Counted from the stretch's first letter, positions 14,745 to 51,232 are shown. The stretch: 51,659 bases of DNA from Candidatus Thorarchaeota archaeon (GCA_011364905.1 RDNZ01000015.1:1-51659); one strand, 5' to 3'. Numbers and translations are program-made. The notes: generated by a model not told the origin, from the letters alone.

Positions 14745-16754
14745 GTGTGCTATCAAAGTCGAGAGAGTGGTTGCTTGAATCTTAAGGAAGCTATCAAGGA
14801 CTACTTCACAGCTCGCCCTCGAGCAAAGAAGGTCCTAGGTATTGCCACAGCAATAGCTGCAAACTTTGCCATGATTGGTTCGGGGTCTGCTGTATTGGCT
14901 GTTGCAGCCGGATCACTTGTGCAGGCACACGAGGACAAGAAAAGAATTCGTCCTGACCAGCTTATTGATTTCTTCAAGGAAGCAATCCAAGACCCAAATG
15001 TCAGGGAATCGTTGAAAGAAGCTGTCAGAGAAGGTGGAACTTCAGTTGCTGTCCCAGTCGCAACTGCGATGAATCAACTTGGAGCATCAGCACCGGAAAC
15101 AAGCCAGTTTGTCGATACCATGAAATCAGATCTCACAGTAGTGATGCAGGAGTTGGGCATCTTACAGGAGATGATTTCATACTATGAGATTCCAGACTCG
15201 CGCAACCGAATGATCAATGTGTGGCGATTGCCACCATACTTGGACGATGTAATGGTAATCGAAGATGCCCGAAACGCAGTCATTACCTCTGCAGCGAAAC
15301 AAGTCAGGGAGGGAGAGAATGTTGTCATCCTCGGAGCTCCTGGTTCTGGTAAAACGACGGTGCTGTACGCTATCTGGAAAGAGCTGGACGAGGAGAATGA
15401 CACAGCACTTGTCTGGGACACAAAGGATGTGGCCAGAACTCACGAGAAAGATGGCGTCATCCTATTTAGTGATGACCTTCCCGAAACAAAAGAGCTTGCT
15501 AAGGCAATTGTAGAGAAGGACATACACGGCGTGGTCACCACAGCGCGGGACCAAGATTGGTCTCGACTGCCAATAGATTTGAGAAGAAAGTTCAACCCCA
15601 TAAACCTTCCAAACATCACTGATGAAGTTATGACCAAGATAGCAAAGAATCACCTTGATAGTCAGGGCATTACCTATGCTAAGGCAGTCCTCCCAACAAT
15701 AGTGGAGAATGCGAGGGGTAGTCCGATTTATGTGAGGTATCTTGTTGAAGAGATAAGAGCTGAGATACGGTCTGGAGTCATCTCAAAGCTTGCAGTAGAC
15801 CGGGTCAAACAAGCACCCAAAGGTATGACAGACTATGTGGCAGGGATACTTGCTAGGATTCTATTCGAACTTGATGGCACAATCTACAAACCTAGAGAAG
15901 GTGCCTTGCCAGTTATCAAAACCTTACTGTGCCTTGCGGATTTGCCTAACTATGAAACGCATGAGGTCCATCTGAATCAGATGTTTTTTGTTCTGAAACA
16001 GCCATCCGATAGTCCGGGTCCTTTCAATGCATTCAAGCAGTATCTCTCAAGAGACCCTCGATTCTTCTCCCTAAAGTTCATGCATGATACGCTTGCCGAT
16101 GTGCTTCGCGGGAAGGTGGACCATCCTGTAATAGGGGATATTCGAATGGTAGCGCAGGAAATGGGAGTTTCCGGTCGACGAGATATTGAGAGCAATGCCC
16201 TAGACGAGGGTTGGGAACATGTCAAAGCGGAATATGAAATGGATAAAGCAGGCGGTCTCGAGCCCCTTCTTGCATATGCATATTTCTCAGCAAAGAACTA
16301 CAATGCATCAAGAATCGATCCAATTGCAGTGGACCTCGCTAATCAGCACCTCGAGAATCCACTAAGTCAAGCATTGTTCGCGCTCACAGGACCAATCACC
16401 CCAGATGAGATTCAGACGGCACACGAAGAAGTGATTCACAAGCCTCCTAGCAGAGCGGATGCTCAAAAAAACAGTCAACCAGCTCCGCATGCCCAATCCG
16501 TTGCTCCGAAAGATCTTGGAAAACTCATTAGAGAGAGAGTAAAGTCAGCTATTGCCCAAAAACGCGACATTGAACTTCCAGAAGAATTGATGAATATAGG
16601 AGAATTAGACATATCAAAAATCATAGATGCCGCAATGAAGGGAGAAGAGTCTGCTGAGCTTGAAAAACTGAAAGAGATAGGAGCAGCTTTTGATAAGAAA
16701 AAGAAAAAGTCAGATCGAGCTGCCAAAGATACTGGGAACGGAAATGAGTCATAG
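14745..16754 (+). CDS. STAND-class (NB-ARC/AP-ATPase-like) P-loop NTPase
   Basis: Ordered motifs GAPGSGKTT, ILFSDD, VVTTAR, RGSPIYV, LLCLADLP, KFMHDTLADVL; true start may be TTG at 14775. Confidence 0.75.
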   Translation: MCYQSRESGCLNLKEAIKDYFTARPRAKKVLGIATAIAANFAMIGSGSAVLAVAAGSLVQAHEDKKRIRPDQLIDFFKEAIQDPNVRESLKEAVREGGTSVAVPVATAMNQLGASAPETSQFVDTMKSDLTVVMQELGILQEMISYYEIPDSRNRMINVWRLPPYLDDVMVIEDARNAVITSAAKQVREGENVVILGAPGSGKTTVLYAIWKELDEENDTALVWDTKDVARTHEKDGVILFSDDLPETKELAKAIVEKDIHGVVTTARDQDWSRLPIDLRRKFNPINLPNITDEVMTKIAKNHLDSQGITYAKAVLPTIVENARGSPIYVRYLVEEIRAEIRSGVISKLAVDRVKQAPKGMTDYVAGILARILFELDGTIYKPREGALPVIKTLLCLADLPNYETHEVHLNQMFFVLKQPSDSPGPFNAFKQYLSRDPRFFSLKFMHDTLADVLRGKVDHPVIGDIRMVAQEMGVSGRRDIESNALDEGWEHVKAEYEMDKAGGLEPLLAYAYFSAKNYNASRIDPIAVDLANQHLENPLSQALFALTGPITPDEIQTAHEEVIHKPPSRADAQKNSQPAPHAQSVAPKDLGKLIRERVKSAIAQKRDIELPEELMNIGELDISKIIDAAMKGEESAELEKLKEIGAAFDKKKKKSDRAAKDTGNGNES

Positions 16755-41209: not shown

Positions 41210-43360
41210 ATGGAAAGGATTGACTTTTGCATAATGCTGTTACTATTGCTGTCGTTGGTCACGGTGGACTTCGATAGCTCTGGCGGTACTTTTCAAGTTG
41301 CTCAAGGAAATCCTCAGGAAACTGGGGAGCTTCTACCGGATCCTAACCTGATGACCATGCCAATCATCGAGATTGGTGATTCGTCTCCTGAGTTTAGCTA
41401 TCAGTATCAATCAGAAACAAGTAATGGAAACCTTGATCTCATATGGACACATACGGCTGGCTATCAGTTGGATTACGAAAATGGATTTCCTAACGTCAAA
41501 TGTAAAGAGTTTGCTCGTAGCTGGCATGCATTCAATTGGCAGTATAATCAGACGCCAATCACACTGAAAATGAAAGCAACAGTCGAGATATCCTGTACAG
41601 GAAGCTTCGCGTCCCAAGAATATGGAAAGGACATGTATTCGATCAACTTCTGGATTGGAAAACCTGAGTTGAGTGACGTATACCTGCTAACGAGCTTTGA
41701 TGACCTTGAGATTGGACGGTATTACGACCTTGAATTCCAGATGCAACGTTTCCAAGCCGAGGCTATCTTTTCTGGCTCCGTAATGCTTGATTCCGCGCAA
41801 GGATACCTCAGTGATGAGTATAGACTGGCTGTGGGTATCATTCCAACACTCCAATTCTTCTATCCACTCACTAGCATAGCTCCTTGGGAGGAGTTTCAGG
41901 GAACTGTTACAGCCACAATCACGCACATATCTGTCACAGCACTCTTGGAGGCAAGAAAGATAACACCTTCTTTAAAGGCCCCCAAATACAACTCATCAGA
42001 CATATGGAAGGAAACAGATAGGGGCTTAGCAATTGAGCCAATAGATCGGAACTCCCTTTCATACTTGAGCCAAAGTTCGAGTAGCAATCCTGCTTCTCTA
42101 AAACTAGGAAGGATGACTTCGCAACATACTCCCATTATGGAAGAAGTTCAAATACCGTACTCATTTGCAGAAACTCAATTCCAATCATTCAAGGCTGTAG
42201 ACAATAGAATGTACATACTTGGACTAGATAAGATGGTATATGGTATTAATCTCATTGCAATCGATTCTAATGGAAATGGGATATGGAATAGCACATATTC
42301 TCTCTTTGATCGGGATGTGCCAATAGTCCTAGACGTGTCTGCATCTGGAAGAATCTACATCGTGTCTTTATCAGAGAGATACACCCCATTGCCAGATTCC
42401 CTAGCATACGACATCGTGTATAGTCTGCTCTGCATAGACCAATCTGGCACAGCTCTGTGGAATCAGACTCTGGATGTGATGAGCTTAGAAGAATATGCAG
42501 CAATGTCGTATAACTGGCAGATTCCAAGAGGTCTTGGGTGCGTTGATGGCGACGTGTATGTTAGTATGGTTGATTCAGTCATGAAGTATGATTCTAGTGG
42601 AAATCATATTTGGACCATACCTTTTGAACATGATGCGCTCTGTATCGACCCTGCTGGAGGATTCTACACTTGTTCAAAGGAGCTAAATGATGAACTTAGA
42701 CTAACCAAGTGGAATTCAGCAGGAGAAGTTGTCTGGAACCGGTCTCTGAGTCTCAACTATGGACTGGATTGGCAAGATCATCCAACCATATCTGCGATGG
42801 AGGTTGGGCCTGATGGGCAACTCGTAGCAGTTCTTGTGTACTCACACATTCACCCAGTGATAATGATCACAAGGATTTCCCGAATGGGACAGATAGTTTC
42901 CCAAGACTCAATTTCAGAAGAAACGAATGACTTTCCATATTTCAACTCCGGCTTTTACTTCTACCCCTACACATATGCTATGAACCCATATGTTTGTGAC
43001 ATGGCACTCACAGGAGATGGGCTAGTGCATCTCGCAGTTCGGGAAAATTACTATGGAGCAGATATCTATAGCCCCTTTCCAGCATCCGTTGCGACCATTC
43101 TTCTCACTTACGAGTTATCGGGTCCGATTGTGATTGCTGTCAGTCCAGAGGCGCTGATAATAACGGGCGTAGCGACACTCATCTTTGCGGCAATTGCCTG
43201 GGATCATTTCATCAGAGGTCGGACCAGACTATCCTTGCCTCGGAAGTACTTTTCGCGATCTCTAGAGTGCCTTTTGACTAGTTTTAGTTTAATCTTGGAA
43301 TACTCATCTGCAGCATTGGGATGTCCGCGCAAATACTCTCTAAAAGCGATGTGTCTATGA
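41210..43360 (+). CDS. Large single-pass surface protein (copy 2) with aberrant C-terminus
   Basis: Collinear paralog of 35432-37531 up to WDHFIRGRTR; tail reads antisense into the GrpB gene. Confidence 0.7.
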   Translation: MERIDFCIMLLLLLSLVTVDFDSSGGTFQVAQGNPQETGELLPDPNLMTMPIIEIGDSSPEFSYQYQSETSNGNLDLIWTHTAGYQLDYENGFPNVKCKEFARSWHAFNWQYNQTPITLKMKATVEISCTGSFASQEYGKDMYSINFWIGKPELSDVYLLTSFDDLEIGRYYDLEFQMQRFQAEAIFSGSVMLDSAQGYLSDEYRLAVGIIPTLQFFYPLTSIAPWEEFQGTVTATITHISVTALLEARKITPSLKAPKYNSSDIWKETDRGLAIEPIDRNSLSYLSQSSSSNPASLKLGRMTSQHTPIMEEVQIPYSFAETQFQSFKAVDNRMYILGLDKMVYGINLIAIDSNGNGIWNSTYSLFDRDVPIVLDVSASGRIYIVSLSERYTPLPDSLAYDIVYSLLCIDQSGTALWNQTLDVMSLEEYAAMSYNWQIPRGLGCVDGDVYVSMVDSVMKYDSSGNHIWTIPFEHDALCIDPAGGFYTCSKELNDELRLTKWNSAGEVVWNRSLSLNYGLDWQDHPTISAMEVGPDGQLVAVLVYSHIHPVIMITRISRMGQIVSQDSISEETNDFPYFNSGFYFYPYTYAMNPYVCDMALTGDGLVHLAVRENYYGADIYSPFPASVATILLTYELSGPIVIAVSPEALIITGVATLIFAAIAWDHFIRGRTRLSLPRKYFSRSLECLLTSFSLILEYSSAALGCPRKYSLKAMCL

Positions 43361-45203: not shown

Positions 45204-46721
45204 TCATTCTTTAGTCGGATTGGGAAGGTCCGTGACGCTCTCCCATGGGATTGCGAGACGACCTGGGTGCAATATCAAGTTCGGGTCCAAGACCTTTCGG
45301 AATTTGACCAGCATCTTGTAGTACTCCTTAGCCTGACTGAAGGTCTGTGGCGCATGGACGAATGGATCTGGCCGATAGTTGAGCCACCCTTTCTTCAGGA
45401 AACTCTTTGTGGTCTCAAGGTTGAACTCCCGAATCTTGTCCATAATGCCAGGCTCTGTCCAGTCAAAACAAAGGATGGGCATAACAATTGCTTGCCTTGC
45501 GTGATCAATGGATGCAACCCACATCGTTTCTGGGAAGCCGTGGTCCGCCATTGCTGCGCAGTACTCCTCCATCATCTTGCTACTCTCAAGCCATGGGCAG
45601 TACCAGGTGATGAACAGGAATCCTGCCTGCCAGAGAGAGTATGGGACCGCAATCTTATTGGGCTTCTTGAGCCGGGATGCGACCTGCTTTGGATGCAGCT
45701 CCTGCTTTGGAGTCGAGCGCTTCTCCCGAACCTCATAGTCCTTGTAGATTTTGTCAATACCTTTGAGGGTTTCATCGAGCTCCTCCTGAGACCACGCCCA
45801 GCACTCGTAATTCATCCACTTCTTGTCGACTCCAATCTTCTTGTAAAAGTCATAATCGATTGGAACATTCTCTTTGGGCCAGCGCGTCATGACAAGTTCA
45901 TAGTTACCACCCTGCACCATGACAGTGCGTTCCGCAATGCCCAGTTCATGTCTAGAAATCTCCCAAGCGGGCTTGACAATGTCATCCCAAGATTCGCCCC
46001 CATAGGCTACAACTGTCTTATAGTGAGGATGGGGTACCATCTTGATGGCACACTTCGTGATGATGCCCATTGAGCCCTGAGACCCCAGAAACAGACCATC
46101 AGGGTTTGGTCCAACGCCCCATCTATAGAACGGTTTTGCACCGGGCAGTGCCCATGAGCCAGTGTGAAAGATCTCACCCGTTGGTAACACAATTTGCATG
46201 CCCATTATCATATCTGCCTGAGGACCATATACACCAGTTACGAGCGAGAACCCTCGCTCAATGGCATCACCAAGTACTGTGGCTGCAGGCGGTGCGCCAT
46301 CAGGGATTGGCGGAGCCCAGTCTGGGTACTTGGTTTTGAAAATTCTCCATGCATCACCAGATCTGACACCAGGCTCCACAACCATGACTCTGTTCTCAGT
46401 ATCTACTTCCATTTTGTCCATCCGAGTCATGTCCATGTAGATTCCGCCAGGTTCTATTGCTGGTAATGCAAAGCCTCCGCTGAGGCCTCCAGCTGCAGGG
46501 GTTACAGGGCTCAGGTTCTCGTTCGCCACAATGAGGATCTTGGATACTTCCTCTGCGCTTGCAGGTCGTACAATGACCTCTGGAACGACAGCCTCGAGGC
46601 CCATAATCCCTCGCGCCATATAGCTATGACGAAGCGGTTCACTGGTGGTGACATACTTCTCACCACAGATGTTTGTGAGTTTCTTGACCACCTCGTCTGT
46701 GACCTTGTTATACTCTACCAA
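45204..46721 (-). CDS. FAD-linked oxidoreductase, VAO/PCMH (GlcD-like) family
   Basis: VRPASAEEV, VEPGV, VLGDAIERG, VLPTGEI, GPNPDGLFLGSQGSMGIITK, LDPNLILHPG. Confidence 0.9.
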   Translation of the reverse strand: MVEYNKVTDEVVKKLTNICGEKYVTTSEPLRHSYMARGIMGLEAVVPEVIVRPASAEEVSKILIVANENLSPVTPAAGGLSGGFALPAIEPGGIYMDMTRMDKMEVDTENRVMVVEPGVRSGDAWRIFKTKYPDWAPPIPDGAPPAATVLGDAIERGFSLVTGVYGPQADMIMGMQIVLPTGEIFHTGSWALPGAKPFYRWGVGPNPDGLFLGSQGSMGIITKCAIKMVPHPHYKTVVAYGGESWDDIVKPAWEISRHELGIAERTVMVQGGNYELVMTRWPKENVPIDYDFYKKIGVDKKWMNYECWAWSQEELDETLKGIDKIYKDYEVREKRSTPKQELHPKQVASRLKKPNKIAVPYSLWQAGFLFITWYCPWLESSKMMEEYCAAMADHGFPETMWVASIDHARQAIVMPILCFDWTEPGIMDKIREFNLETTKSFLKKGWLNYRPDPFVHAPQTFSQAKEYYKMLVKFRKVLDPNLILHPGRLAIPWESVTDLPNPTKE

Positions 46722-46788: not shown

Positions 46789-46832
46789 AGAAATCCATCA
46801 TAAATAAGATTCGGCTAACAATAGATATCGAA
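46789..46832 (+). repeat. Intergenic repeat copy A
   Basis: AGAAATCCATCATAAATAAGATTCGGCTAACAATAGATATCGAA. Confidence 0.8.
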
Positions 46833-46926
46833 TGTGGAATAAAAAAAAGAGGATATGCGTTCCTCATTAATTCCCTTATTGTGATTCCAGTTTGACCAAT
46901 CATGAAAGCTCTAAGTGAACTGCGAT

Positions 46927-47880
46927 TTAGGTCACCCTTGACGAACTCAGGCAAAGACTCTGTTCAGGAACTTCGAATAGAGTGCTACTAAGATATTTCG
47001 AACCCAAGTCAGCCAGCAGCACCACTATTAGAGATTCTGACTCACGCTGATTGTGTAAATCTTTAGCTAAATCAAGAGCACCTGTAACCGCTGCACCTGC
47101 GCTATGACCAATGAAGAGACCCTCCTCAACAGCCAGATTTTTTGCTGTGCACTCTGCAGAAACATCATCTACGTAAATACGCTGGTCAAGAATTGTTTCG
47201 TCAAATATCCCTGGCACGTACTGAGTCTTCAAATCTTTCAGTCCTGCGATAGCCGCTCCAGTTTCAGGCTCTACTGAAACAATCTTGATTGTTGAGTCAA
47301 ACTCTTTCAGACCTCGTCCTACACCCATCAATGTACCGGATGTACCAAGACCTGCAACGAAATGCGTGACTTTCCCATCAGTGTCTTCGATTATCTCTTG
47401 AGCTGTTGTTTCATAATGAGCAGTCCAGTTCATTGGATTCTCAAACTGGTTTGGATAATAATACATCTCTGGTGATTCTATGAGCCTTGCATCCACGTAG
47501 TCTTGAGCCCCATCCATACCAAGATCTGCAGATGTGAGCGTAACAGTAGCACCATATGCTTCCATCATTCTGCGTCGTTCAATCGACATTGATTCGGGCA
47601 TGACCAACTCACATCTGTATCCTCTAATGGCACAGATCATAGCGAGTCCTATTCCTGTGTTCCCGCTTGTTGCTTCGATTACGGTCTTGTCCTTAGTCAG
47701 AAGCCCTCGCTCAATAGCGCTGTCGATCATATACTTGGCAATTCGGTCCTTCACACTCCCTCCAGGATTTAGACCCTCGATTTTTGCGAGAAGTGTGATA
47801 TCGGGATATGGATTGAGATGATGGATTCTAACAAGGGGCGTATGGCCTATCATTTCACTTACATTGTCATAGTATTTCAT
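46927..47880 (-). CDS. Cysteine synthase family PLP enzyme (CysK/CysM)
   Basis: IGHTPLV, NPGGSVKDR, EATSGNTGIG, NQFEN, GLGTSGT. Confidence 0.93.
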   Translation of the reverse strand: MKYYDNVSEMIGHTPLVRIHHLNPYPDITLLAKIEGLNPGGSVKDRIAKYMIDSAIERGLLTKDKTVIEATSGNTGIGLAMICAIRGYRCELVMPESMSIERRRMMEAYGATVTLTSADLGMDGAQDYVDARLIESPEMYYYPNQFENPMNWTAHYETTAQEIIEDTDGKVTHFVAGLGTSGTLMGVGRGLKEFDSTIKIVSVEPETGAAIAGLKDLKTQYVPGIFDETILDQRIYVDDVSAECTAKNLAVEEGLFIGHSAGAAVTGALDLAKDLHNQRESESLIVVLLADLGSKYLSSTLFEVPEQSLCLSSSRVT

Positions 47881-47979
47881 AATCTTCCATTACTCATCTT
47901 CCTCTTTTGCTAATAGGCATGTCTGCAAATATTGCCCTCATTCTATCTTTATGCTCCATCACCGTTGAAAGCGCGCAGA

Positions 47980-48046
47980 AGAAATCCATCATAAACAGGA
48001 TTCGGCTAGCCATAGATTCGAAAGAAGCAAGATAGATTAGCCTTCA
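47980..48046 (+). repeat. Intergenic repeat copy B (upstream of LRR gene 1)
   Basis: AGAAATCCATCATAAACAGGATTCGGCTAGCCATAGATTCGAAAGAAGCAAGATAGATTAGCCTTCA. Confidence 0.85.
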
Positions 48047-48059
48047 CCCTTATTTGTAA

Positions 48060-48917
48060 ATGGGTAGTTTTCGTTTGGCGAGTATCAGTTTCGACCAAGG
48101 GATTGCGATTCTTGCATTTTTAACATCAATACTCGTTGGTTTGTTCATGTGGATTTACTTGGGGGAGAGAGCCGTAGATTTCAATGACCGTGTTTTCTCC
48201 ACTTTTTTAATAACTACTTTATGTTGGTGCGGTTGGCTTTTTCTTGGTATTGAAATCACAACCAGATATCATGCTTGGAAAAGGCGATTCGCACAACCGC
48301 AACTGATGACTCTGGATTTGGAAAATTCTAATCTTGATAAGATTAATCTAGCAAGTATCGAAAATCTTGACCAATATGAGCGAATCGATCTTGGATTCAA
48401 CGAACTGAAGACAATCGATCTCTCTCCTCTCACTGGGAGCACTAGCCTGAAGGAGTTGATTCTCTACATGAATCACCTGGAGTCCATCGATCTCTCTCCA
48501 CTGGCATCCTGCCCGAATCTCGAGTATCTTGACCTTACAAACAATGACCTTGAAACGATAGACCTCACACCACTCGCATTGTGTTTCAAACTAACTGGTC
48601 TGAATATTGGAGGAAACAAAACCTCACACCTCGATTTGAGTCCAATATCGGAATGTAGAGAATTGGAAGTTCTAAATATCGATGATATGAATCTTAGAGA
48701 GATCGATCTCTCACCTCTAAGAAACTTCACAAAATTGTGGTTCCTAAAACTGAATGATAACGAGCTGAAAACTCTCGATATCACGCCACTATTCGAGTGT
48801 CAAAAGCTGTCTGATTTTGAGATTGATAACATAGAGCTAACAACCACGTTGGATTTTGATCTCGAAACTTGGCCAAAAGGTGTTAGAGAGTATAAACGCA
48901 GAATTCGTTTTATCTAG
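48060..48917 (+). CDS. Membrane-anchored leucine-rich-repeat protein (2 TM + LRR)
   Basis: Two TMs, then 22-aa repeats such as DLSPLASCPNLEYLDLTNNDLETI. Confidence 0.88.
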   Translation: MGSFRLASISFDQGIAILAFLTSILVGLFMWIYLGERAVDFNDRVFSTFLITTLCWCGWLFLGIEITTRYHAWKRRFAQPQLMTLDLENSNLDKINLASIENLDQYERIDLGFNELKTIDLSPLTGSTSLKELILYMNHLESIDLSPLASCPNLEYLDLTNNDLETIDLTPLALCFKLTGLNIGGNKTSHLDLSPISECRELEVLNIDDMNLREIDLSPLRNFTKLWFLKLNDNELKTLDITPLFECQKLSDFEIDNIELTTTLDFDLETWPKGVREYKRRIRFI

Positions 48918-48989
48918 TATTTTTAGAAACACACGCCACCTGCGAGAACAGACACGGCCTTAGAATGACTCTAAGTGTCCGTTCATCAA

Positions 48990-49056
48990 AGAATTCCACC
49001 AGAGAAAGGATTCGGCTAACTATAGATTTGGTAAAAGCAAGACAGATTAGCTTTCA
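48990..49056 (+). repeat. Intergenic repeat copy C (upstream of LRR gene 2)
   Basis: AGAATTCCACCAGAGAAAGGATTCGGCTAACTATAGATTTGGTAAAAGCAAGACAGATTAGCTTTCA. Confidence 0.85.
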
Positions 49057-49083
49057 TGAGTTTCCATCTGTAGGAGTCTGCTA

Positions 49084-50166
49084 ATGTCTGAAGTGAAAAT
49101 TGACTGGAAGATCGGTTGCTTGATATTCCTGTTTGTACTGATAATGGCTTCTTTATTCTTGTATGTGTTCGGATTTACTCCATATGAACTATCTGTGAGA
49201 ATAGTCATGATTGTAATACCCATTTTTCTAGGACTTGGTTTGTATCTCGTGATAGCACAACTTATTGCAGTGACTTCAGTAAGTCCTAGACTTCCCAAGC
49301 TTTCACAAGTCTTCAGTATCAGGGACGCACCATTAACCAGGAATGAAGAATTATCGATTCTCGGTTTTTTGTGTGGTCTCATCCTCAGTCTACTAACATG
49401 GAGAATTCTAGGATCTCACGGGGCAGAGATAGGATTTAGATTAGCCATGTCTCTTGCAGCTTTCACCGCTGGTTTGGCAGGAGTACCATTTGCATATCTT
49501 TACGTTTCTTACGAACTGCAAGTAAGGCAAGAGGGGAAGAGTCCACCATCGCTGACAGCATTAGATTTGAGATCCTCAGGATTGTCCGAGTTTAGTTTGA
49601 AAGGAGTCCAGAATCTAGACCATATACAAAGTATCAGACTAGAACTCAACGAACTGAGAACAATCGACCTCAATCCTCTTAGAGGGAGCAATAGCCTTGT
49701 TGAGTTGGTTCTACACTCGAATCGCTTAGAAACCATTGATCTCTCACCACTAGCAACTTGTCCCAACTTGGATTATTTGGACCTCGCAGCAAACAATCTG
49801 AAAAGCGTAGACCTCACTCCACTCGCTTCTTGCACTAGACTAACAGCCCTAAACCTTGGAGGTAATCCAACTTCCGAGATTGACCTAAGCCCTCTCTCGG
49901 AATGTAGAGATCTGAAGATTCTGACTATAGATGATATGAAACTCACAGAAGTTGATCTATCCCCTCTGAGTGGTTTCAGAGAACTTGAGTTTCTGAAACT
50001 AAATGATAACCAGTTAGAATCTGTTGATATTTCACCGCTTTTTGAATGCGAAAAACTAGACTTACTAGAAATTGATAGAATAAAACTCACAACAACATTG
50101 ATTCGGGAGGTGGAGGACTGGCCTAAGGGTGTTAGAAAACATAGTAAGAGAATCAGCTCAGTCTAA
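49084..50166 (+). CDS. Membrane-anchored leucine-rich-repeat protein (4 TM + LRR)
   Basis: Four TMs, then an LRR domain collinear with 48060-48917, with shared cap WPKGVR. Confidence 0.88.
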   Translation: MSEVKIDWKIGCLIFLFVLIMASLFLYVFGFTPYELSVRIVMIVIPIFLGLGLYLVIAQLIAVTSVSPRLPKLSQVFSIRDAPLTRNEELSILGFLCGLILSLLTWRILGSHGAEIGFRLAMSLAAFTAGLAGVPFAYLYVSYELQVRQEGKSPPSLTALDLRSSGLSEFSLKGVQNLDHIQSIRLELNELRTIDLNPLRGSNSLVELVLHSNRLETIDLSPLATCPNLDYLDLAANNLKSVDLTPLASCTRLTALNLGGNPTSEIDLSPLSECRDLKILTIDDMKLTEVDLSPLSGFRELEFLKLNDNQLESVDISPLFECEKLDLLEIDRIKLTTTLIREVEDWPKGVRKHSKRISSV

Positions 50167-50248
50167 AAATCCCGGTACTATTTTTACCTAGAAATAACAA
50201 GTTATTATGAAGGACCAGGTTCCCTTTTTCTTCAGGAGTGAGGTAGAA

Positions 50249-51232
50249 TTGAAGATTGGAATCCAAATCGAACCTCAGATGGGGTATACCTACGAAGATA
50301 TAGTAACTCTTGCCAAGGCTTCCGAGAATGCAGGCTTCTACAGCTTCACGGTTTCGGATCACTTCTTTGGAAATCCTGAGAGTGTAGAGAAGCATGCTCA
50401 CGATGCATGGACTCTTCTTGCGTTATTGACTCCACAGACTGAGCGAATTCGTCTGGGAGTAGTTGTTACTTGTCAATCCTATAGGAATCCTGCACAATTG
50501 GCCAAAATCGTAGCGACTTTGGATAACGCATCGAATGGGAGAATAGACTTTGGTATCGGAGCAGGATGGAAGAGATCAGAGTATGAGGCATATGGCTACC
50601 CATTTCCATCCAACAAGACAAGAGTTCTCCAGCTGAGAGAGGCCATCCAAATAATCAACCTCCTCTGGACAGAAACAAGACCAAGCTTCGACGGTGAGTA
50701 TTATCGTATCAAAGAAACCATGTTCCTACCGAAACCTGTTCAGAAACCTCGCATTCCCATCTGGATTGGAACTCAAAAGTTGAAGGCTCCAATGATGGAA
50801 GAAATCATTGCACGTTATGCAGATGGACTGAACTATGATACCGAAACTCCAGAAGAACTACTAGAGAAGAAAAACCGAATGAGAAAAGCATGTGATAAGG
50901 TTGGACGCAATTTTAATGATCTGAAATGGTCTCTTTATCTATGCACATCTGTAATTGGGAAGGATGCGCATGATTTTGAAGCAAAGAAGAAGGAGCTCCT
51001 TAAACAGCACTGGTTGTTCGAGGAGATAACTGACAAGCAAAAACCGAACGTCCTCGAAGTTATGCTTACAAAGTACGTTTCGGGCACAGTAGATTCAGCT
51101 GTTGAGGATCTCTCCAAATACAGGAATGAAATAGACATCCTCATCTTGGGTCTTCCTATGGTTGGTGACCTTCGCAAGAACGGATTGTATACCATCAAGA
51201 TACTAAAAGACCATATCGTGCCTAGAACCTGA
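50249..51232 (+). CDS. LLM-class (probably F420-dependent) oxidoreductase
   Basis: VSDHF, DAWTLLA, YRNPAQLAK, SNGRIDFGIGAGW, PIWIG; start placed at the TTG after GGAGTGAGG. Confidence 0.9.
   Translation: MKIGIQIEPQMGYTYEDIVTLAKASENAGFYSFTVSDHFFGNPESVEKHAHDAWTLLALLTPQTERIRLGVVVTCQSYRNPAQLAKIVATLDNASNGRIDFGIGAGWKRSEYEAYGYPFPSNKTRVLQLREAIQIINLLWTETRPSFDGEYYRIKETMFLPKPVQKPRIPIWIGTQKLKAPMMEEIIARYADGLNYDTETPEELLEKKNRMRKACDKVGRNFNDLKWSLYLCTSVIGKDAHDFEAKKKELLKQHWLFEEITDKQKPNVLEVMLTKYVSGTVDSAVEDLSKYRNEIDILILGLPMVGDLRKNGLYTIKILKDHIVPRT

Follow-up and report, generated by a model that had tools for sequence, protein, structure and literature searches.

The window analysed here, a stretch of 51,659 nucleotides from Candidatus Thorarchaeota archaeon (GCA_011364905.1, RDNZ01000015.1:1-51659), carries two tandem genes, g1 and g2, whose products combine hydrophobic N-terminal helices with a leucine-rich repeat (LRR) domain (Table 1). 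Hydropathy analysis identified two such helices in g1 and four in g2, so that, as a reading of the sequence alone (hereafter, the sequence-only reading) had stated, the membrane parts differ in module number. The only Pfam matches in either protein were to LRR families (LRR_8/LRR_4). The repeats are 24 residues long, follow the pattern LxxLxLxxNxL with Pro/Cys on the convex side and end in a common C-cap; the LRR body is acidic and the tail basic. The TTG at position 48075 is the likelier start codon of g1, as judged from its alignment with the ATG of two relatives, L014 and L017. Contig 13 of sediment run X2, which may, but need not, be the sample the window came from, runs from the end of g1 through the spacer into g2 (48861-49806) with zero differences. 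This bridging contig shows that the tandem arrangement did not arise by misassembly. Both g1 and g2 are real genes.

Table 1. Features of the g1/g2 locus, in window coordinates.
Feature	Coordinates	Strand	Remarks
FAD-linked oxidase (PF01565)	45204..46721	-	Fixed landmark of the slot; a neighbour, partnership with the LRR protein not shown
Third copy of the upstream element	46789..46863	+	Partial; immediately 5' of the divergent FAD-linked oxidase gene
PLP enzyme (PF00291)	46927..47880	-	Presumably cysteine-synthase-like; position within the slot variable
Conserved upstream (promoter-like) element before g1	47980..48063	+	nhmmer E 9e-19; this copy is among the 9 profile sources, so the score arises by construction
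g1, 2TM-LRR protein, 285 aa	48060..48917	+	Class-A hairpin followed by 8 LRR repeats and a basic C-cap
g1 class-A membrane hairpin, about residues 14-65	48099..48254	+	Short outer loop; W, G and R conserved in class A
g1 LRR domain	48303..48914	+	Repeat 1 degenerate; repeats 2-8 of 24 residues each; basic tail after a cap whose W and G are invariant
Second copy of the upstream element, before g2	48990..49073	+	
g2, 4TM-LRR protein, 360 aa	49084..50166	+	Class-D hairpin, class-A hairpin, LRR
g2 first hairpin (HP1), class D, about residues 10-62	49111..49269	+	Profile match
g2 second hairpin (HP2), class A, about residues 91-142	49354..49509	+	In register with the g1 hairpin
g2 LRR domain, residues 157-360	49552..50163	+	AlphaFold2 pLDDT about 90-98
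Luciferase-like monooxygenase/LLM oxidoreductase (PF00296)	50207..51232	+	Usual downstream neighbour; present also without an LRR gene

Residues 3-282 of g1 align with residues 78-357 of g2 without gaps (138 of 280 identical, 49%; E 4e-96), and the LRR parts are 59.5% identical, which agrees with the earlier description of two collinear and highly similar LRR domains. Since the alignment is gapless, the g1 hairpin corresponds to HP2 of g2, and g2 has one additional hairpin in front. The sequence-only reading went further and proposed that all three hairpins are copies of one module and that g2 therefore carries an internal duplication. Comparison with shuffled sequences did not bear out the alignment of all three: the Z-score was 6.6 for g1 against g2-HP2, but 2.2 for g2-HP1 against g2-HP2 and 1.4 for g1 against g2-HP1. 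The AlphaFold2 model of g2 (42-row alignment; mean pLDDT 83, pTM 0.65) contains four long helices followed by the LRR, with pLDDT near 60 in the first hairpin.

A search with g2 returned 380 matches whose source names led to Thorarchaeota, and the best 120 were examined. Membrane helices beside the LRR were recognized by eye in 44 of these 120; together with g1, g2 and 10 ORFs taken from the loci they form a set of 56 proteins, whose 72 hairpins were sorted into classes. The architectures comprise A (17 proteins, one without an LRR), C+A (8), A+B (7), B (5), G (5), D (4), E (4), D+A (2), X+A (1), two singletons and one protein with a C-terminal hairpin. Single-hairpin proteins thus account for 38 of the 56 collected. 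In P0034, L022 and L029 the LRR comes first and the hairpin lies at the C-terminus, indicating that both the position and the sequence of the anchor are free. Class-A hairpins also occur as stand-alone ORFs (L031/L032, P0124, P0125, P0126). Across 13 diverse rows class A retains W, G, R, F and G, and it carries conserved small-residue motifs; the W...R pair is common to classes A and D, and charged residues are nearly absent from the transmembrane helices.

The family appears to be narrowly distributed. A class-A profile found seven matches among 1.84 billion representative sequences; six belong to the family (three with an LRR, three solo), and the seventh, a low-complexity protein, was judged spurious. 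The sequence-only reading had proposed a search of Asgard proteomes for the two-helix module; the eight matches that the class-A profile gave in 400 Asgard genomes (14 candidates scored per listed genome) were confined to the genus of the window. When g2 residues 1-150 were compared with proteins of 198-630 aa, P0003 was the sole match, and residues 1-155 yielded no usable match in the ESM Atlas.

Profile comparisons placed the hairpins of g2 in different classes. Four proteins, P0036, P0037, L018 and L031, carry a class-D hairpin alone before an LRR, and a profile built from these four, with g2 excluded, scored g2-HP1 at 22.0 bits, the best of 1420 control hairpins from the window's genome reaching 8.7. 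The class-A and class-D profiles matched each other with an hhalign probability of 88% (E 3e-6), by which A and D are remote homologues; on the A profile, the four single D hairpins scored 11.6-17.7 bits and g2-HP1 7.4, against a control maximum of 12.9. Classes B and E form a second group (hhalign 68%), and classes C, F, G and the C-terminal hairpin did not exceed 18% when compared with A. The same LRR is therefore combined with six or more groups of hairpins (A/D/X, B/E, C, F, G and C-terminal) between which no homology could be detected. The loop signature that the sequence-only reading had noticed, G-x4-[DE]-x3-R, can indeed be read in all three quoted loops and is rare in the controls (12 of 1420), but it does not hold as a family signature, being present in 9 of 35 class-A, 1 of 6 class-D and the single class-X hairpin and in none of the 30 of classes B, C, E, F, G and C-terminal. 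W-x12-R is a better mark (A, 25/35; D, 4/6; controls, 14/1420).

Because HP1 matches the stand-alone D hairpins, and classes A and D are only remotely related, the four-helix state of g2 appears to come from the joining of separately evolved genes. What survives of the proposed internal duplication is the remote homology of the two hairpins; g2 is better explained by fusion of two long-diverged paralogous genes than by duplication within a gene. Across the family, 4TM fusions have at least four origins (D+A, C+A, A+B and X+A). In the C+A and A+B forms the linker between the hairpins contains a decayed LRR repeat 1, in register with the point at which repeat 1 begins in the 2TM genes. This remnant scored p < 0.05 against shuffles in five of seven C+A and seven of seven A+B linkers (12/14, the rows being related and not independent), and points to the scar expected of a deletion that began in repeat 1 of one paralogue and ended at the start of the paralogue downstream. 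From this decayed first repeat we infer that tandem paralogues fused by deletion, the junction scar lying in the C+A and A+B forms and not in g2 itself. No such remnant was found in the D+A and X+A linkers (p = 0.87 for g2, 0.60 for P0003 and 0.75 for P0016). In g2 the junction would lie earlier, in a Pro-Lys linker that resembles, by eye, the linker of the single-D proteins. In the genome of L031/L032 a D-LRR gene lies one gene on from a solo A hairpin, an arrangement of the kind from which fusions could form.

The sequence-only reading had suggested a cytoplasmic LRR on the grounds of an even helix number and a basic stretch after the second helix of g1. The basic stretch is present, and the positive-inside rule favors the same orientation throughout the family. 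The density of K+R was 354/1847 (0.19) on the LRR side and 61/858 (0.07) on the outer side, and 50 of 51 distinct proteins had the higher density on the LRR side, the count leaving out duplicates, three N-terminally truncated proteins, the solo hairpin and the C-anchored form. For g2 the values were 7/58 and 1/20; for g1 they were 5/30 and 2/15, a weak bias when taken alone. N-x-S/T sequons were not enriched (77 seen, 81.5 ± 9 expected). Given the charge bias, the existence of soluble paralogues and the C-terminally anchored form, the LRR is most likely cytoplasmic. The outer loops are short, 3-17 residues across the family and, measured between hydrophobic windows, about 13 in g1 and 11 and 5 in g2, with no Cys in those of g1 and g2.

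Four transmembrane helices, termini inside and a C-terminal LRR, the order of parts that hydropathy, the model and charge give for g2, are also the order of parts in LRRC8A, a constituent of the animal LRRC8/VRAC channels, which are hexameric anion channels; g1 has two helices. The sequence-only reading had raised this likeness with the caution that it might be analogy, and analogy only is what it proved to be. In the part of the LRRC8A report that describes its architecture (10.1101/331207), the protein has four transmembrane helices, 15 repeats and about 800-850 residues, as opposed to 285-360 residues and 8 repeats here, and its large, disulfide-held extracellular region, in which segments Q49-H119 and H287-L314 form the pore constriction, contrasts with the short Cys-free outer loops of g1 and g2. 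Whereas LRRC8 is a 4TM protein, the 4TM state in the Thorarchaeota family is secondary, arising by fusion, and the 2TM form is commoner. Homology to the channels found no support either: the pannexin-like domain PF12534 was absent from the Pfam matches of g1 and g2 (E ≤ 0.01) and from the genome (E ≤ 1; genome 81% complete), and a hairpin profile found no pannexin-like chain among PDB sequences at E ≤ 10. A single-sequence model of the transmembrane part (pLDDT 64, pTM 0.37) gave no match at E ≤ 0.001 in one fold search, and the best match in a second had Z 6.7, none reaching Z ≥ 8 and all being generic helical hairpins. With the whole g2 model, all 41 Foldseek matches listed were LRR proteins, namely internalins, the Roco LRR and designed LRRs; the absence of LRRC8 from these 41 does not by itself exclude it. 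A predicted assembly of three copies of g2 residues 80-360 scored 0.00 twice, the controls likewise not folding, and so speaks neither for nor against oligomers. We regard an LRRC8/VRAC-like channel, with an oligomeric pore of transmembrane helices gated by the cytoplasmic LRR, as very improbable: beyond the shared order of parts, it has to contend with the missing pannexin-like domain, outer loops of 5-13 residues, helices nearly devoid of charge, and a family in which single-hairpin proteins predominate and the 4TM forms are mixed fusions.

The best Foldseek matches listed for the LRR part were Listeria InlA (E 1.6e-9) and the Chlorobium tepidum Roco LRR (E 2.6e-8). Internalins, among them Listeria InlA, InlB and InlH, are secreted or wall-anchored, with an extracellular LRR behind a signal peptide, whereas here the even helix number and the charge distribution predict an LRR inside the cell in 50 of 51 proteins; the curated NCBIfam internalin models (NF033188, NF033189, NF033187) scored 25-50 bits, far from their cut-offs of 1050-1700. 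Roco proteins carry a Roc GTPase and COR on the same chain, while in g1 and g2 nothing follows the cap. The closest likeness is to soluble Thorarchaeota/Asgard LRR proteins, which have the same 24-residue repeat type and C-cap but lack the membrane hairpins that the family adds at either end. A family LRR profile detected 10 proteins in the window's genome (E ≤ 7e-15), and eight of these are without a membrane hairpin of the present classes and have a beta-rich N-terminal cap instead, a cap that most family members have lost but that the class-G form from a second genus retains. One of the soluble LRR genes adjoins a 5889-aa ORF. A 2026 preprint reports, in the passages concerned, that alpha-beta (LRR) solenoids are expanded in Asgard archaea with their function unresolved (PMC13734099); those passages describe no membrane-tethered form, and the word 'transmembrane' does not occur in its main text. 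Passages of a 2020 preprint count LRRs among promiscuous domains (10.1101/2020.10.19.343400). In a literature survey that took in few subscription journals we found no description of the present family; the cluster tables in the supplements of these two Asgard preprints could include it.

Within the family, selection strongly conserves the concave face of the LRR, which in repeats 3-7 presents a Tyr/Asp/Asn/Asp/Phe/Lys strip. Among 88 repeat pairs from 17 genes (DNA identity at least 80%; the pairs are not independent), pN/pS was 0.05 for core positions and 0.04 for the three positions that face outward on the concave strand, as against 0.41 and 0.32 for the next two loop positions and 0.30 elsewhere; no position class exceeded 0.41, and no positive selection on the LRR was found. 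The concave face is the usual binding surface of an LRR, and its being as constrained as the core suggests that it has a conserved protein partner. The hairpins evolve faster than the LRR: their dN/dS was 0.22-1.45 (10 pairs, one out-of-register C-hairpin pair left out; below 1 in nine of the 10), compared with 0.12-0.22 for the LRR (eight pairs with computable dS). The claim that a variable membrane part is combined with a conserved LRR thus holds across the family, in hairpin classes, dN/dS and pN/pS alike.

Hairpins and LRRs have separate histories. In an LRR tree of 49 rows, from which P0003, five proteins of class G and the solo hairpin were omitted, the hairpin classes were scattered, and near-identical LRRs bore different hairpins, P0001-A grouping with P0038-B (100/100) and P0009-A with P0031-B (100/98). 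Within the LRR, the DNA of L014 is 92% identical to that of L017 in repeat 1 and 51-68% in repeats 3-6, while its repeats 4-7 are 74-83% identical to L019; L031 and L025 are 92-96% identical in repeat 7 and the cap only. All five triplets submitted to a maximum chi-square test had p ≤ 0.01; they were chosen after the identity tables had been viewed. As read from these alignments, hairpins and LRR blocks recombine. Between L014 and L017, pS was 0.15 in the neighboring oxidase gene and 0.68 in the LRR. Over 90 pairs the two values were uncorrelated (rho −0.12), the oxidase being mostly near saturation, and a general rule that LRR alleles are older than their hosts was not borne out: median pS was 0.62 for the near-saturated oxidase and 0.71 for the LRR, which was the higher in 57 of the 90.

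The family occupies one chromosomal slot. At E ≤ 1e-40 a family gene was present in 11 of 87 genomes of the class, all of them in the window's genus (11 of 28), and in 10 of the 11 no more than 2.4 kb separates it from the start of the divergent FAD-linked oxidase gene, the contig of the eleventh ending first. A class-G member in a second genus (G007) is in the same slot, so the slot is older than the genus. No family gene was found beside the oxidase in 13 further members of the genus and seven genomes of other genera (four stretches ended with the contig). The family is accessory, and, since the gene is absent from most genomes of the class, its job is dispensable. No partner gene travels with it, for the slot neighbors also occur where the LRR gene is absent. 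A Rab-like GTPase was considered as a partner, but linkage does not single it out: of 44 slot loci, 12 have it downstream, four of these without an LRR gene, and its closest match in the window's genome (55%) is on another contig. The tie to a STAND-like NTPase suggested by the sequence-only reading was likewise not sustained: an nSTAND-like ORF, below Pfam cut-offs, lies at 14745-16754, 31 kb from the pair, and tblastn found it in none of 44 slot loci in this and related genomes, so that, unlike in STAND/NLR-like sensors, there is neither fusion nor conserved linkage with such an NTPase.

The slot itself varies. The upstream element has exactly three copies in the genome at E < 1, all in the slot. 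A variant contig of sediment run X1 joins position 47945 to 49007, with g1 missing, and a loose contig end at 49007 in run X2 is consistent with the same loss. Loose ends at 48379 and 48890 carry, in frames read by hand, an in-frame alternative first repeat and another family-type tail on a g1-like LRR; at 88% likeness these variants may come from related species. In-frame stops interrupt two family genes (G038, G052). Taken at face value, the contigs show a slot in flux in sediment populations. Such turnover would suit a largely dispensable birth-and-death family with a residual LRR binding surface, in which hairpin diversity and 4TM forms are by-products of recombination between upstream elements and similar LRRs: the elements flank each copy, the g1-less variant joins across them, there are stop-containing copies and truncated solo hairpins, and none of the 13 further genus members has a family gene beside the oxidase, four stretches having ended with the contig. 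Strong purifying selection on an exposed face, a slot and 2TM-LRR architecture common to a second genus, and hairpin dN/dS below 1 in almost every pair speak against it, and we think it improbable, slightly more so than the antiviral role considered next.

CBASS and Thoeris, two systems of bacterial abortive infection, have transmembrane effectors that damage the membrane. By analogy, the LRR might recognize a conserved protein of a virus or mobile element and the 2TM or 4TM part oligomerize and damage the membrane, a role in conflict that would fit the patchy presence, copy-number change, mosaic alleles and the allele replacement seen between L014 and L017, as well as the two stop-containing genes and a GC content (0.40-0.41) below that of the genome (0.45). 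The family shares with prokaryotic-defense 2TM/4TM effectors the short hairpins, the cytoplasmic binding domain and the accessory distribution. Unlike them, seven family proteins had no match in PADLOC (2023 library; E ≤ 0.1), a result that leaves room for an undescribed system, and no defense genes lie around, the neighbors being metabolic and surface-protein genes in a slot that is fixed, not mobile. The downstream LLM gene has a similarly low GC content (0.43), and the binding face is conserved, not diversified as in an immune receptor, pN/pS being at most 0.41 in every position class. A conflict module is thus rather unlikely.

We give a probability of about one half to a different reading, that of a membrane-tethered adaptor with exchangeable anchors and a fixed LRR face that binds one partner. 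A formerly soluble LRR of the 24-residue-repeat type would be tethered to the inner face of the membrane, g1 and g2 being paralogues of this kind. Each two-helix hairpin would insert with both ends inside and a short loop, of about 5-17 residues, outside, and a basic, often Pro-rich linker would lead into the eight-repeat LRR, whose concave face would bind one conserved cytoplasmic partner and retain it at the membrane, perhaps with lipid contact from the basic C-terminal tail. The hairpins would be mainly exchangeable anchors, perhaps also selecting a membrane neighbor. That relatives differ by swapped, fused and lost anchors fits such an adaptor better than a relative of animal LRRC8. The architecture, the hairpin classes, the conserved slot, the recombination and the constraint on the concave face are all documented above. 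On the other side, the conserved class-A residues (W, G, R, F, G) exceed the needs of a bare anchor, solo class-A hairpins have to be taken as decay if the hairpin is an anchor only, and there are the lack of a linked partner gene, the weak charge bias in g1 and the absence of the gene from most genomes.

These class-A residues raise the question of whether the hairpin does more. As an intramembrane sensor, each hairpin class would read a membrane cue (partner helix, lipid or stress) and cluster the LRR, with one conserved cytoplasmic output, and 4TM fusions would combine two inputs, which is the variable-input, conserved-output idea of the sequence-only reading. Several hairpin classes coexist among genomes whose oxidases are about 90-100% identical, class A keeps its W/G/R and small-residue motifs above a conserved concave face, the added hairpins remained intact in at least four independent fusions, and variants with other N- and C-termini occur in the same sediment runs. 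Yet outer loops of about 3-17 residues provide scant surface for binding, the hairpins have a much higher dN/dS than the LRR, neither a catalytic output domain nor a conserved partner gene is present, and the anchor can sit at the C-terminus, so a sensor seems doubtful to us. Equally speculative is a broader version, a receptor-like system of Asgard archaea whose diversity would come from shuffled modules: one slot would exchange hairpins, single or fused in pairs, that sense different membrane partners, possibly viral membrane proteins, and the invariant LRR face would signal to one cytoplasmic effector, for example a small GTPase. If true, it would be an independent prokaryotic route to four transmembrane helices with a cytoplasmic LRR, and the inverse of LRR immune receptors, the membrane part being variable and the LRR fixed.

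Whichever role applies, g1 and g2 represent a real and modular variant of Asgard LRR proteins that most likely faces the cytoplasm and is no relative of LRRC8; that its anchors have been shuffled in the past is well supported. Its reach is limited to two genera of one class, in which it is accessory. The family shows stepwise how a 4TM protein with a cytoplasmic LRR can be made by fusing tandem 2TM-LRR genes, and this origin counsels caution against calling such proteins LRRC8 ancestors. As Asgard LRR proteins are numerous and, in the passages of the preprint cited above, of unresolved function (PMC13734099), the family offers a small testable case: the fixed LRR face should retrieve one conserved partner, and the natural anchor swaps would serve as built-in controls.

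Membrane hairpins of the class-A type, the two-helix anchor carried by the window's 2TM-LRR gene and by the second hairpin of its 4TM-LRR neighbour, were also encoded by short ORFs that stand alone. One of these, the collected protein P0125, has a tail with weak similarity to the 2TM-LRR gene translated in a different frame (pairwise E 0.012), suggesting that P0125 may be a frameshift remnant. The solo hairpins of locus L031 and of P0124 look like a kept pair. In a further form the anchor follows the LRR, and the copy of this gene in genome G052 contains a TAA within its N-terminal part. The gene for a soluble relative of these LRR proteins lies directly upstream of that for a giant surface protein.

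Features of the LRR family, of its chromosomal slot and of the window (L, fetched loci; P, collected proteins; G, genomes; C, contig)
Feature	Location	Strand	Remarks
Solo class-A hairpin ORFs	L031:1025-1267; P0124, P0125, P0126		70-84 aa
Same LRR, C-terminal anchor	L022:8300-9205, L029:500-1504, P0034		two-helix anchor
8-TM protein	L142:6000-6836 (G046), L143:724-1548 (G050)		~275 aa; in slot, in place of LRR gene
STAND-like P-loop NTPase	window:14745-16754	+	669 aa; weak nSTAND5/nSTAND3 matches, below cut-off
Paralogous pair	window:35432-37531 and 41210-43360	+	each ~700 aa; signal-like N-terminus, C-terminal membrane anchor
Rab-like GTPase (PF00071) with two neighbours	L015:3-1855, L016:12617-14782, L167:16096-18000		
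Soluble LRR relative	G000 C87:50000-49368		
Surface protein	G000 C87:49212-31543		5889 aa

Elsewhere in the window, the STAND-like protein has a hydrophobic stretch at its N-terminal end besides the P-loop NTPase, and no linkage of its gene to the LRR genes was found. Neither of the two paralogous proteins had a Pfam match. The first closes with a short acidic tail, whereas the second has a different sequence at that place, perhaps owing to a frameshift.

The slot is the accessory site beside a divergent FAD-linked oxidase gene. A few kb downstream of it, in two genera, lies the Rab-like GTPase gene, with or without an LRR gene, accompanied by two conserved uncharacterised genes (~110 and ~420 aa). 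In G038, a TPR protein with a repetitive, Lys/Thr-rich N-terminus (L021:6666-7367) is encoded two genes downstream of a family gene containing a stop. One contig from run X4 entirely skips (at window:50184-51213) the gene for the LLM oxidoreductase, the usual downstream neighbour of LRR genes, indicating that slot genes besides the LRR gene are also gained and lost.
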